Made by a program: the position numbers and the translations under genes
Notes under the pieces: model-generated
The model's database searches: none
What the model saw: only the letters and a program-made list of their open reading frames with translations
What the model was told of the DNA's origin: nothing
Assembly: GCA_951406725.2 (NCBI GenBank)
Contig: OX597832.1
Coordinates: 248,001-312,000, forward strand
Direction: 5' to 3'
From: Octopus vulgaris
Taxonomy: Eukaryota
DNA length: 64,000 bases
Shown here: positions 2,718 to 61,224 of the stretch, piece by piece
How positions within the stretch are numbered: the stretch's first letter is position 1
How the letters are laid out: each line of letters starts with the position of its first letter

Positions 2718-3181
2718 CAGTTCTATATTTAAGAGATGAGGAATTATTTACATTTGATGGATATTTGTCCTCATCCTGTTTGTTGTTAACATGTTTCAGC
2801 CTCCATCCTTCATCAGGTGTCTTGGGGAAATTTCGAACTTGGGTTCTCATTCCTAAGGTATTTTTTGATATTGTTGTTGTTGTTATTATTATTATCATTA
2901 TTCAGGTCACTGCCTGGAATTGAACTTGGAATCTTGGGGTTAGCATGCCCACGGGCATATGGCGTAGCGGTTAAGAGTGCAACCTACTAACCCCAAGATT
3001 CCACGTTCGATTTCAGGTAGTGACCTGAATAATAATAACAACAACAACATTGAAAAATACCTTAGGAATGAGAACCCAGGTTCAAAATCTCCCCAAGACA
3101 CCTGATGAAGGCTGGAGGGTATATCAACTGAAATGTGTTAACAACAAGCAAGATGAGGACAAATATCTGTCAAATATAAAT
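2718..3181. mobile_element. Non-autonomous Penelope-like fold-back insertion (inverted pair of terminal repeats with tRNA-like cassette and decayed hammerhead)
   Basis: 2718-2943 is the reverse complement of most of 2944-3181. A 12-bp TSD AAAGATATTCCA lies at 2706-2717 and 3182-3193. The same sequence follows the GIY-YIG ORF at 5220-5470. Confidence 0.85.
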
Positions 3182-3836
3182 AAAGATATTCCAGTTGTGA
3201 CCACCACTCTTACACATATCTGCAATTATGTTGCCTGTTGTGTCCTTTTAAAACTATAGGGTATGCATTTGAGGGAATTTGACTACTACTTTTGTAATTT
3301 GACAGATCTCTTGGAGGTTCTCTCATTCTTGACTGAACAGGTGTTCCTTTTCTGTCATTATTCCTTTTTTCTTGGCAACTTATTAAAACTGTGGTTATAA
3401 AATCCGACATACTTTTAACACTTTGATAATGTTGATGCTGAGGTTGATTATAATTATCTAATCACATTTACTACTTTATAGTTTTAATTGTTTAACTATC
3501 CAATTACAAGTCTAGCAGTATAATTGTAACATCATACATATTTGTCATCTTATGATAGGTTGTTTTCCTGCATGTCAATCACTAATAACTCTTCCATTAT
3601 ACGAACCTCACAGTCTTCCTCCAAACTGTTTAACCACTCTTACCGAGAAACGCTCTTTTTATACCCTACTAAACATTTTGTCCTTCCTAATCACACCCTT
3701 CCATCACTTAGTATCTTTCACCACCTTAGGTATTATGTCCCTCTGGAAGTACAGTTTGCTGTAAAACTACATCTACTGCAGCTGTAACCAATCATTTGCC
3801 ATGTCTACTATATTCTCTATTTCTTTGTGTTGTTTC

Positions 3837-3887
<51 letters not shown>

Positions 3888-5214
3888 TATATACACACAC
3901 ATACATAGGCTGTTATTTTAACTGAAGACATAGGTTACCATTAATAGTCCTAGGGTACATGTGCTATAGTCTGTCATTAAAGATACTTAAGTTATTATAG
4001 TACCTAGGTATATAGTTTGTCACTTACCCTACTGGGAAGTTTTGAATTGAAGATGACATCTTTCCCTATCAGCTCTAATTAAGCCATTTCAGTTTTCTGA
4101 ATCTGATACTTCTAGCAGGTGAAACAACCATGTAAAAGTTATTTCATCAGTATGACATATAAGTAAAGGAGATGTTGCTTAGTTATAGGTTAAAGTTTAT
4201 GATTTATATGTGACACATTAAAATATTATACTCAAAGTACTGCCAATATAAAGAATTTTTAAAATGCCGAGATTAACCTTATGTTTTACTCTAACAAATG
4301 TAACAACTAGACTTCAAGCCTGTATCACCAATCTAGTGTGGCTCATTAGAACTTGCAAATTCATTTGAGACCTTCTGACACAGGTTACCTTTCTTTAAGC
4401 CTGCTTAGCGCACTCTCCCATACTGCAATACAAAAATCACTACTAGCCATGGGTCTACATCATGTCCAATATCTCTTATTGTGACTCTAGTACTGGGACA
4501 CAGATGTATAGCCAGAGGTATGTCTGACAATTTCTGTCTGTGTTTTGGCTGTTTTCTGTTTTAAAAGTACAGCAGATAATACCATGACTTTGGTTTTTCA
4601 GTTAAGATAATTTCTCTTGATATGTACTGGAGGATATGTACCACTTGATGTAAGAAATTTAAACCATTTCTGCTTTCTCATCAGCAGAAGTATATGATTT
4701 TTCTCTTTTCCCTCTCCTGGATAGCAAAGAAATTTTATCAGGTTTTACAAAATTTTCCTGTCTACATTTTTTTTATTAGTACAGCGATAGGTTAAATAAT
4801 TCTGTTTGTTCATTTTGCATTGAAGGCATGCTTGTATTCACTTCACTATTATATGAACAGGCTGCAAAATTTGGGATTGGATAAGAATGTATTTATTTTC
4901 TTCTCTTAAATGTTCACTATATTGTTCTTTTCTTCTTCCTCTTGCAGTGTTTTACCATGTGGCATAATTATATGTGGTAGCCATTTTGGATGTGAAACTT
5001 TTAAAGAATAGAAATAAAATTTTTAAAATTTGTGAAGCAAATTTTTGTTTTTATGCTGTCTACCCCACAGGGATTGAGGGCAACTCCCTCTTTCTTAGAC
5101 AATTTTATACTTTTTTTTTATTTTCTAGTACTCCAAAGAAAATTTTATTTGGCAGTGTTTTAAATAAATGTGTTTTGAAAGGATAAGCATGTCTTCACAT
5201 TATGAGAGTTGAAT

Positions 5215-6388
5215 ATAATAATAATAATTTACATTATTTACATTTGACAGATATTTATCCTCTTGTTTGTTGTTTACACAACATTTTGGTTGATATACTC
5301 TCCAGCCTTCATCAGGTGTCTTGGGGAAATTTCAAAACTGGATTCTCATTCCTAAGGTATTTTTCGATGTTATTATTATTATTCAGGTCACTGCCTGGAA
5401 TCGAACTCAGAATTTTGGGGTTAGTAGCCCGTGCTAATCACTACGCCATATGCTCGTGGGTAATTATGGAGTGAATTTTAGGGTTTATAAATCTAATATT
5501 TTCCTATCCTTCCTTAATACTCATATCTGCTTGGTCTGCTTAGGCGGTTGTTGTGTTCAAGCATATATGTTGCTTCTTTTAGTTTTTGTATTTTCCAAGT
5601 GGTGTTCTCTGTCTATTATTTTAACTTCATCCCACTGGGGGAGTTGGTCTCCATTTTTCCATACATGATCAGCTATACCTGATTTATCAATATCTCCTCC
5701 TGTCACAGCTTTGCAATGTTCAGCTACCCTTATTTTGATGGGGTGGCATGTTTCACCTTTGTATAACCTACCACACCTGCATGGGATGGAGTACATGCAG
5801 TCTTTGGTCATATTCTCTTCTATTGGTGGTTTTACTTGAAGAAGATATATGCAAAGTGTTGTATTACTCTTGAATACTGTCCTGATGTCATATGGGCTGC
5901 ATATCTTTTGTATCTTTTCAGAGAGGCCTTTCACACAGGGTAGACAGGCTGTGGATAGTTTATTGGTTTCGCCCTCTCTTTTCTTCATAATTAGAGCGGA
6001 TATTATACTTTTGGGGTAGTTGTTGCTTAACAGATCATTATTGAGCTTGATCCTTTCTTTGTGGTGTGTATCATGATTGCTGCTTATATTCTTTGCTCGA
6101 TGTTTTAGGCACTGAGCAATCCCTCTCTTTACACTTTATGGATGGTGGGAATTGAAGTTGAGGTATTGTCCAGTGAAGGTCGGCTTGCGGTGTACGGATG
6201 TCCTGAATCCATACTTGGTGCATGTTTTTGATATGTCCAGGAATGCTAGCTGGTTGTCTTTTTCCTGTTCCACTGTGAACTGTATAGATGGCTTTATTGA
6301 GTTGTGTTAACAATAAACAAGATAAGGACAAATATCCGTCAAATATAAATAATGTACATAATTCCTTATCTCTTAAATATAGAAGTGT
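5215..6388 (-). mobile_element. 5'-truncated Penelope-like element (RT C-terminus + GIY-YIG endonuclease + terminal repeat) with an inverted terminal piece at 6304-6388
   Basis: ORF 5557-5988 has MYSIPCRCGRLYKGET...RVAEH...SGIADHVW (PLE GIY-YIG). Upstream minus-strand frames give NSIKPSIQFTVE, LAFLDI and TFTGQYLNFNSHHP (PLE RT thumb). Confidence 0.9.
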
Positions 6389-59514: not shown

Positions 59515-60245
59515 GCAACAGGGCACCCAAAAGAAACCGTTATTTTGCAATATTACTTTATTCACATTTACACTTTTATCGGCATCAAAATATTATCCAT
59601 TTGAAGCAATGCATCAGCCCAGATGTGTTTTCTACTGTTTGAAGCAGTGATGCCTTTTAATACCTCCATCGTTTTTTCTTCTTCTCTGCCACATCTGCAA
59701 AATGTTTTCCTTTAAGGACATTTTTCATTTGGCATAACAAAAAAAAGTTGCAGGAAGTAAGATCAACTTCCCACTGTTCTTTCAGTTCACAACATGCATA
59801 ACTGATTTTGATCTTCCATGAGCAAGTGAAGCACAAATTTTGTTGCAACTCTTTTCATTTGGAATTCGTTGGCAGATCCAGGATACACCAGTCATATCAA
59901 CAAATTCGTCAATTGTTCTTCTGCAATATCAGTTCATGAATTTTCATGATGTTTTCATTCGTTTGGGAGATCAACTGTCATCCTGAACGAGGTTGGTCTT
60001 CAAGCAAGAAATGATTATTCCTTAAGTGTGAAACCACTCGTAAACTTGTGTTTTGCTCGTGGTTGCATCCTTGTAAGGTGTTTAAAGCATGAGCTGTTTA
60101 AGCCACTGTTTGCTCCATCTTTCACAGAAACATGCTGTTCCTTCATTTCAGCCGGTGCAATAGTTGACAAACAGGAGAGATGTACTGCAAAACAAAGACG
60201 CCACCAGTCGGCAGACTGGTTGCTTCAAGTGAATTTGGGTACCTC
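59515..60245 (-). mobile_element. Mariner relic
   Basis: DL..CNFFL..QMKNVLKGKHF, QQNLC (AAKFVP region frameshifted). Confidence 0.7.
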
Positions 60246-60437
60246 CTCATATATGTGACTGTGGTTAGAGACTTGCTTCCCAGCCAAAAAGTTCTGGGTT
60301 CAGTCCCACAGCATGGCACCTTGGTCAAGTGCCTTCTTATATAGCCTCAGACAGACCAAAGTCTTGTGAGTGGATTTGGTAGATGGAAACTGAAAGAAGC
60401 CTATTGTATATAAGTATATATATATATATATATATAT

Positions 60438-60532
60438 ATAATTGCTATTTAATCTTTTTAGGCTTAATTGAAATGGCTGTAAGTCCCTTACAGCCATTTC
60501 AATTAAGCCTAAAAAGATTAAATAGCAATTAT
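60438..60532. repeat. Perfect ~45-bp-arm palindrome
   Basis: ATAATTGCTATTTAATCTTTTTAGGCTTAATTGAAATGGCTGTAAG-TCC-CTTACAGCC...GCAATTAT. Confidence 0.92.
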
Positions 60533-60849
60533 CAAAATCATTATATTAGGCAAAATCTCTTCAGAGAGGTAGAAAAAAGATATACTGTTAGGTTTTTATG
60601 TGTTATATTTTAGAATCATCACAGCAAACTGAATATTATTCTATGGCTAATATTGGTATATGTCTGGGTTAGAGGGTTAGAAGTTGTTTTAGTGGGTAAT
60701 GGATGATATGTGAATATAATTACGGTAATAATGGGTAAATAAATGGAGACTGAATAGTAAACTGCAGTGAAGAGGAGTATCACATGAATGAGGAGATAAA
60801 ATAAATACTTTAGTAAGTTGTTTATAAAATTGAGAGAAACTTAAAAATG

Positions 60850-61224
60850 AAATAAAAACAAACTGACTTTTCTCTTTGGTACGAAAGTGACGTAAGGCGG
60901 GTGGAATGAATGAAGTTTATTTTATTAGTTACTGTGGTCAATACAAAACTAGCTTCACGATTAATGTAAAAACCAAATAAATTAATTTTAAAAAATTAAT
61001 TTAATTCAGAAGCACATTTTCCGATCTTCAGTTGTATATACAACTGAAGATTGGAAAATATGCTTCTAAATTAAATTAATTTTTTAAAATTGATTTATTT
61101 GGTTTTTACATTAATCGTGAAGCTAGTTTTGTATTGACCACAGTAACTAATAAAATAAACTTCATTGATTCCGCCCGCCTTACGTCACTTTCGTACCAAG
61201 GAGAAAAGTCAGTTTGTTTTTATT
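60850..61224. repeat. ~185-bp-arm palindrome centred on TATATA, each arm with a hammerhead-like motif
   Basis: Centre CTTCAGTTGTATATACAACTGAAG at ~61037. The arms differ by scattered transitions. Confidence 0.92.

Follow-up and report, generated by a model that had tools for sequence, protein, structure and literature searches.

In this study, we analysed a window of 64,000 nucleotides from Octopus vulgaris (the whole stretch under study, positions 248001-312000 of contig C19 in a 2.8-Gb genome), in which an initial annotation made from the letters alone had reported numerous hammerhead ribozyme motifs. The window has a GC content of 37% and is rich in long interspersed nuclear element (LINE), mariner, and microsatellite repeats. 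All reported motifs were found in place, and genome searches site by site identified each of the 12 named sites as a copy of a dispersed repeat family. One motif at 27181 (minus strand) had been overlooked and was added as a 13th site (family I), resulting in nine families designated A to I (Table 1). As proposed before, the majority sequence of all nine is a type I hammerhead whose stem III is palindromic, counting the U3-A8 variant of H and the C4 variant of G. Based on these folds and their surroundings, the motifs are very probably type I hammerheads located at the 3' ends of Penelope-like elements (PLEs; families A, D, and G) and of non-coding units (families B, C, E, and F) likely copied by PLE enzymes.

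A canonical type I descriptor matched the window three times, compared with 0.025 matches on average after local dinucleotide shuffling (40 shuffles); a descriptor relaxed to accept core variants as well as the known additional base at stem II and palindromic stems III revealed six matches against 0.075 in 40 shuffles (seven against 0.25 with one mismatch allowed). The excess over shuffles anticipated by the initial annotation was also obtained in a sample of forty 10-kb stretches at fixed positions on contigs C1-C4 only (400 kb; 14 matches, shuffle mean 1.0; 12 against 0.6 with a stem I of at least 4) and in the flanks of fetched loci (17 matches in 399 kb, none in five shuffles), where nearly each match represented another family. 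An Rfam scan of the window, a check suggested by the same annotation, remained without a match at the gathering threshold, and the 72 matches obtained at E ≤ 10 include no hammerhead family, which may be due to long stem II inserts and a minimal stem III. This miss, the seven window copies that violate a core rule, and one doubtful match of the relaxed descriptor would fit an origin as chance folds in AT-rich repetitive DNA. The doubtful match (60564, minus strand; 60438-60564), set aside as possibly due to chance, lies inside a 95-bp perfect tail-to-tail palindrome. However, the excess over shuffles, the fixed position of the hammerhead near the 3' end of each element, and palindromes in nine of nine families stand against chance folding, and since the motifs are conserved within their families, such an origin is refuted for the 13 sites and can be considered negligible.

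First-look candidates in the genome numbered 4436 for A, 2761 for I, 2409 for G, 1551 for D, 1234 for C, 780 for H, 387 for B, 319 for E, and 133 for F, with only the best 40 scored per search (94-97% identity for those of I). Alignments of the 20-30 top loci per family yielded a hammerhead as the majority in every family. The stem III palindrome holds at 24 of 24 positions beyond A15.1-U16.1 across the nine family majorities, which are partly interdependent. For B and its relatives, two free stem III positions were paired in all 20 distinct haplotypes, with four pair types each, and stems I and II in 18-20 of them; one of these 20 rows comes from another family, and the search pattern fixed the remaining stem III columns.

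In the window itself, the full core is kept in six of the 13 copies (B, C, D, E, H, and I), all on the minus strand. Thus, the four copies previously regarded as intact (39781-39871, 40229-40311, 48922-49017, and 58687-58738) do carry the full core, belonging to C, D, B, and E, respectively. Among those listed as variant or decayed, four A copies (G12 lost or deletions in stem II/III), G (G12 lost), and both F arms (A15.1 lost) proved to be decayed, while H carries a family-fixed U3-A8 core found in 12 of its 20 loci. All six full-core hammerheads (26830-58734) run antisense to an exon at about 27696-28898 that matches the splicing regulator WTAP (E 1e-8), and two of them are situated just upstream of it, probably within an intron. 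Selection against sense copies might account for this strand bias, as might chance.

Table 1. Hammerhead-bearing features of the window (C3 and N17, positions of core nucleotides; RT, reverse transcriptase; UTR, untranslated region)
Feature	Position	Strand	Remarks
Family A head-to-head inverted pair	2718..3181	both	Decayed hammerheads, C3=2816 (minus) and 3102 (plus); plus arm begins at tRNA-like head
Poseidon-type PLE, 5'-truncated	5233..6303	minus	RT thumb and GIY-YIG remnant 6303-5488, 3' UTR, decayed hammerhead A, C3=5315
Family A 3' fragment	8052..8190	plus	Decayed hammerhead, C3=8105
Family H minimal hammerhead	26760..26890	minus	U3-A8 core variant, C3=26830, N17=26801
Family I element	27020..27527	minus	Full core, C3=27181, N17=27104
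Family C unit, non-coding	39630..40082	minus	Full core, C3=39857, N17=39792; A-A mismatch at stem II base; ends at (TA)n
Hydra-clade PLE, 5'-truncated	40082..41985	minus	Endonuclease C-terminal remnant 41815-41645, long AT-rich 3' UTR, full-core D, C3=40307, N17=40233
Family B unit, non-coding	48780..49218	minus	487-bp monomer; full core, C3=49011, N17=48928; one mismatch in stem III palindrome
Neptune-type PLE, decayed	52193..54945	plus	RT remnant 52193-53036, mariner-like piece, CA-rich UTR, decayed G, C3=54805
Family E 1.6-mer, period 488	58433..59206	minus	Full core, C3=58734, N17=58691; ends at (TA)n
Family F head-to-head inverted pair	60851..61224	both	C3=61031 (minus) and 61044 (plus), both without A15.1

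Families at the 3' ends of Penelope-like elements

The link to PLEs drawn in the initial annotation was borne out in the window, where A, D, and G are each preceded by open reading frame (ORF) remnants. Its notion of non-autonomous families applied to B, C, E, and F, which carry PLE-type scars, whereas A, D, and G represent 3' ends of 5'-truncated coding PLEs of three clades. All three include truncated copies in which 5' segments are inverted or partial tandems occur.

The endonuclease remnant upstream of D shares 51% identity with the last 56 amino acids of intact Hydra-type ORFs and precedes the hammerhead by 1.3 kb; an inverted tail of the same element is located at 41831-41985. At locus L275, a D-type UTR leads upstream into a contiguous RT-endonuclease frame, and D follows the ORF in L090 as well. 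Intact ORFs of 840 amino acids, 78% identical to the RT upstream of D, displayed the motifs DKT and CxCX5C plus a GIY-YIG domain at the C-terminus, and no CCHH. Judged by these motifs in the translations and the (TA)n target against the criteria of PMC8557442, D is assigned to the Hydra clade. A Hydra-clade family (L341-L343) was noticed with many intact frames of 820-860 amino acids, an asparagine-rich insert, a 3.5-kb 3' UTR, and hammerheads on both sides.

For G, a Neptune-type RT remnant lies 1.8 kb upstream in the window, and we infer that both belong to one copy. Relatives of G (about 70% identity) flank Neptune-type ORFs as direct repeats in L263, L264, and L272, and in L187 an endonuclease end was detected 1.3 kb upstream of G. 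The putative Neptune-type label of G is taken from motif patterns (presence or absence of the cysteine linker) and mutual similarity. A search of protein representatives resulted in 1200 unnamed relatives at E ≤ 0.001 and did not advance clade placement. With Pfam, the short PLE remnants went undetected, and full frames matched RT and GIY-YIG domains only weakly.

Further elements of this kind were observed. A Neptune-like family with a 775-amino-acid ORF (L266:1-2070, L281-L310), in which 150 of 150 scored endonuclease matches were identical, repeats in tandem with a period of about 4.27 kb, carries a hammerhead of its own, targets (TA)n, and looks very recently active. A GC-rich Neptune-type family (L261, L262, L271) forms 6.2-kb head-to-tail tandems with long CA-rich spacers, its ORF being seemingly split by a frame change near the start. 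In the window, an endonuclease C-terminal remnant of an AT-rich Neptune-like PLE (39367-39176, minus strand) is 42% identical to the 775-amino-acid family. Furthermore, about 3.5 kb of the window (39722-43259, including C and D) is duplicated from position 65074784 of contig C3 onward with 97% identity.

Hammerhead A followed a Poseidon-type ORF in 20 of 20 ORF loci, and PLE ORF pieces were present in 7/30 family A loci. The ORF remnant in the window is 69% identical to a 569-amino-acid genomic PLE frame, and the element has an inverted tail at 6303-6388. Family A is thus the 3' end of a PLE, its putative Poseidon-type label being again based on motif patterns (presence or absence of the cysteine linker) and mutual similarity. 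Between ORF end and hammerhead, at about 5455-5385, this element harbors a tRNA-like head; the inverted pair of A is flanked by a 12-bp target duplication (2706-2717, 3182-3193). At a relaxed score, ARAGORN called a tRNA in 6/30 A heads compared with 1/600 shuffles, and none at a near-default score, while A-box and B-box patterns were detected in 18/30 and 22/30 heads, respectively. Rfam revealed no tRNA match in the head, and ARAGORN no tRNA gene within the window. Among the 30 top copies, the start falls at -17 to -2 of tRNA +1 in 21, and nine continue into the PLE. These counts are selected, since the query picked out copies that extend to this point; in the unselected 400-kb sample, only about two of ten A copies start there, most being shorter. 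A local hairpin could likewise cause this clustering. The tRNA-like start, as far as the predicted head indicates, likely lets family A travel as a short parasite.

Closed non-coding units

Families B, C, E, and F were identified as closed non-coding monomers of 460-505 bp, C elsewhere measuring about 480-505 bp. Direct repeats revealed periods of 472-494 bp in B (18/30 loci, some overlapping), 458-505 in C (8/30), 482-497 in E (4/30), and 461-507 in F (7/30), and at least two whole hammerhead units stand in tandem in B (L009) and F (L141). In the E 1.6-mer of the window, the 3' half of the second copy is located near 59150-59206. Inverted segments were flagged in 17/30 B, 12/30 C, 9/30 E, and 11/30 F loci, some of them being unrelated flanking palindromes. 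The two F arms of the window have 21 private differences from the family majority in common and none unshared at majority columns, so that both derive from one template. An additional hammerhead tandem with four 399-bp units and a full core was observed at L273:5377-6640.

The families had been described as unrelated. Their diversity is indeed high; B and C, however, are homologous (64% identity over about 190 nt, E 2e-9), and E and F have only short motifs in common, judged by eye. Copies of B are 95-97% identical. A (TA)6+ stretch shortly downstream was present in 27/30 B, 22/30 C, 24/30 D, 15/30 E, and 24/30 F loci as well as 14/20 G and 15/20 I loci, compared with 1/30 for A and 3/20 for H.

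Taken as they stand in the genome, B, C, E, and F seem to be retrozyme-like units likely copied by PLE enzymes. They might instead be terminal repeats, either solo or duplicated in place, that belong to autonomous PLEs with ORF-bearing copies outside the sample, since PLEs normally carry tandem terminal repeats, only 30-60 loci were read per family, and D also seemed non-coding for 1.3 kb until the Hydra ORF appeared. Yet each of the 29 distinct B insertions that exceed one unit runs into a preceding monomer, reaching up to 3.3 units, and a same-strand PLE piece was found upstream in only one of 120 B, C, E, and F loci (L030), separated by inverted segments, which makes this origin rather improbable.

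Cleavage and mobilisation

Among the same 29 B insertions, 11 start at +83 to +111, i.e., 0-28 nt past the predicted cut at +83/+84 (binomial 1.6e-5 against a uniform distribution, with the width of the interval set after data inspection). The same pattern would be expected from an RT that stalls at stem I or from AT-rich microhomology. In contigs of four runs, whose RNA origin is guessed, B was covered in pieces and the monomer junction was crossed in 4/4, which genomic tandems also explain.

As to a possible mechanism, the window hammerheads are predicted from their folds to cut RNA only as dimers; hammerheads with palindromic stem III have been described to act in this way, though weakly (PMC4209133, PMC6765202). 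Read-through or tandem transcripts would juxtapose two palindromic stems III, and partial cleavage would release monomers or 1.x-mers, possibly circularised; circles are formed by animal retrozymes (PMC7229834). The freed units might then be inserted by PLE RT and GIY-YIG endonuclease, mostly 5'-truncated and, for the non-coding units, in trans, and single inserted copies would subsequently decay. Young intact PLE helper candidates (Neptune-like and Hydra families) do exist in the genome.

A different explanation holds the hammerheads to be vestigial passengers, whose retention in master elements would serve RNA pairing or dimerisation, in vivo cleavage being slight or absent. It agrees with the success of Naiad PLEs without canonical motifs (PMC8557442), with the upstream hammerheads retained intact in full-length Hydra copies, and with the result that no 5'-end cluster at the predicted cut was found in C (0/8), E, or F loci. 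In contrast, compensatory changes preserve core and helices across lineages, and the B insertions that begin just past the cut argue for cleavage, so that a purely passive role appears possible but doubtful.

Several points weigh against hammerheads that act in PLE-driven copying as outlined here. Published PLE hammerheads cut poorly in vitro (PMC4209133), which also fits the passenger explanation, and eight of nine frog retrozyme dimers failed to cut (bioRxiv 2026.07.22.740005). The core has been lost in many sampled copies (intact in 13/30 A, 28/30 B, 23/30 C, 19/30 D, 10/30 E, 5/30 F, 13/20 G, and 12/20 H), and C, E, and F carry a mismatch or extra base at the junction of stem II and G12, so that cleavage may be slowed. 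Since insertions extend 50-170 nt or more beyond the predicted cut, the cut is not what sets their 3' end. No autonomous partner for B, C, E, and F emerged from 54 PLE-ORF loci, 20 Hydra-type loci, the young Neptune-like family, or a second B search; the young Neptune-like and Hydra families bear hammerheads unlike those of B, C, E, and F and have no terminal repeat in common with them. Finally, H and I are not tied to any parent PLE ORF in the searched flanks: four H loci extended by 4 kb have common sequence to about -650 only and no same-strand PLE ORF upstream, and within the 900 bp upstream of I neither strand held a readable ORF. An inverted pair of an H-related family, truncated within stem II, was also seen at 37920-38164 of the window.

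Abundance and relation to known systems

The 400-kb sample revealed a density of 30-35 motifs per Mb, which extrapolates to 84-98 thousand in the genome (95% range 43-164 thousand), and additionally holds eight mostly decayed A motifs. Compared with 2.2 matches expected at this density, the six in the window represent a two- to threefold excess (P 0.027) for a window picked after the fact. A hotspot was therefore rejected as the principal reading; the diversity of motif families is real, and the window is not special. Apart from the hammerheads, the window also contains an open mariner-type transposase frame of 354 amino acids (1069-2133, plus strand). A far-reaching picture, with some 100,000 intact-core hammerheads in dozens of PLE-related families, including a tRNA-headed short interspersed nuclear element (SINE) that arose within the 3' UTR of Poseidon and is mobilised by PLE enzymes as well as young 487-bp retrozymes whose 5' ends record cleavage in vivo, is put forward only tentatively and as a whole seems unlikely.

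The initial annotation had regarded these elements as poorly catalogued, but the association with PLEs is already in print, including an octopus Hydra-clade element, Hydra-1_Obim, listed with a hammerhead (PMC8557442 File S2). For giant squid, 235 Rfam hammerheads are given in PMC6962438. A term search of PMC13282606 returned no mention of ribozymes, though its repeat library may contain these families. Our literature search, which did not cover most subscription journals and Repbase, resulted in no cephalopod hammerhead census and no tRNA head within a PLE 3' UTR.

Families A, G, H, and D resemble the minimal type I hammerheads of PLEs (Cervera and de la Pena 2014, PMC4209133; Lunse et al. 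via PMC6765202) in the extra base before stem II, the palindromic stem III, and the short stem I, and those of PMC4209133 also in the U3-A8 variant, the mostly single truncated copies, and the opposite-strand pairs. In contrast to the latter, several families here possess stem II inserts of 15-60 nt and palindromes of 8-12 nt, and the sampled density would correspond to motif numbers far above the 2,000-9,000 that this source gives per genome. With the Hydra clade (including Hydra-1_Obim), our elements share DKT, the CxCX5C linker, the C-terminal GIY-YIG domain, (TA)n targets, and a hammerhead near the 3' end, while they differ from the elements of PMC8557442 by their very AT-rich sequence, 3' UTRs of 1.3-3.5 kb, and different hammerheads. 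Animal non-LTR (long terminal repeat) retrozymes (PMC7229834; bioRxiv 2026.07.22.740005) resemble the non-coding units in that their monomers span a few hundred bp and each carry a single type I hammerhead, and also in tandem copies, low GC content, and a proposed PLE origin. Unlike these retrozymes in long arrays, B, C, E, and F are for the most part dispersed as 1.x-mers that show 5' inversions and (TA)n targets. Schistosoma SINE-like hammerhead repeats (PMC6765202) combine a Pol III-type (RNA polymerase III) promoter with a following hammerhead as family A does with its predicted head, but the tRNA-like head of A lies inside a Poseidon-type PLE 3' UTR, and its short copies display PLE inversions and a target duplication.

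Altogether, the families are largely further examples of PLE terminal-repeat hammerheads and retrozyme-like derivatives, the association of motif and PLE being known. Notable parts are the tRNA-headed family A, the 5'-end cluster of B, and the motif density, which per base would be roughly tenfold that of the axolotl, provided that the 400-kb sample represents the genome (120,000 motifs, PMC7229834; 28 Gb, bioRxiv 2026.07.22.740005). Young non-coding units such as B, intact PLE families with identical copies, and the PLE-type insertion scars of the non-coding units lend further structural support to the proposed travel of animal retrozymes with PLE enzymes.

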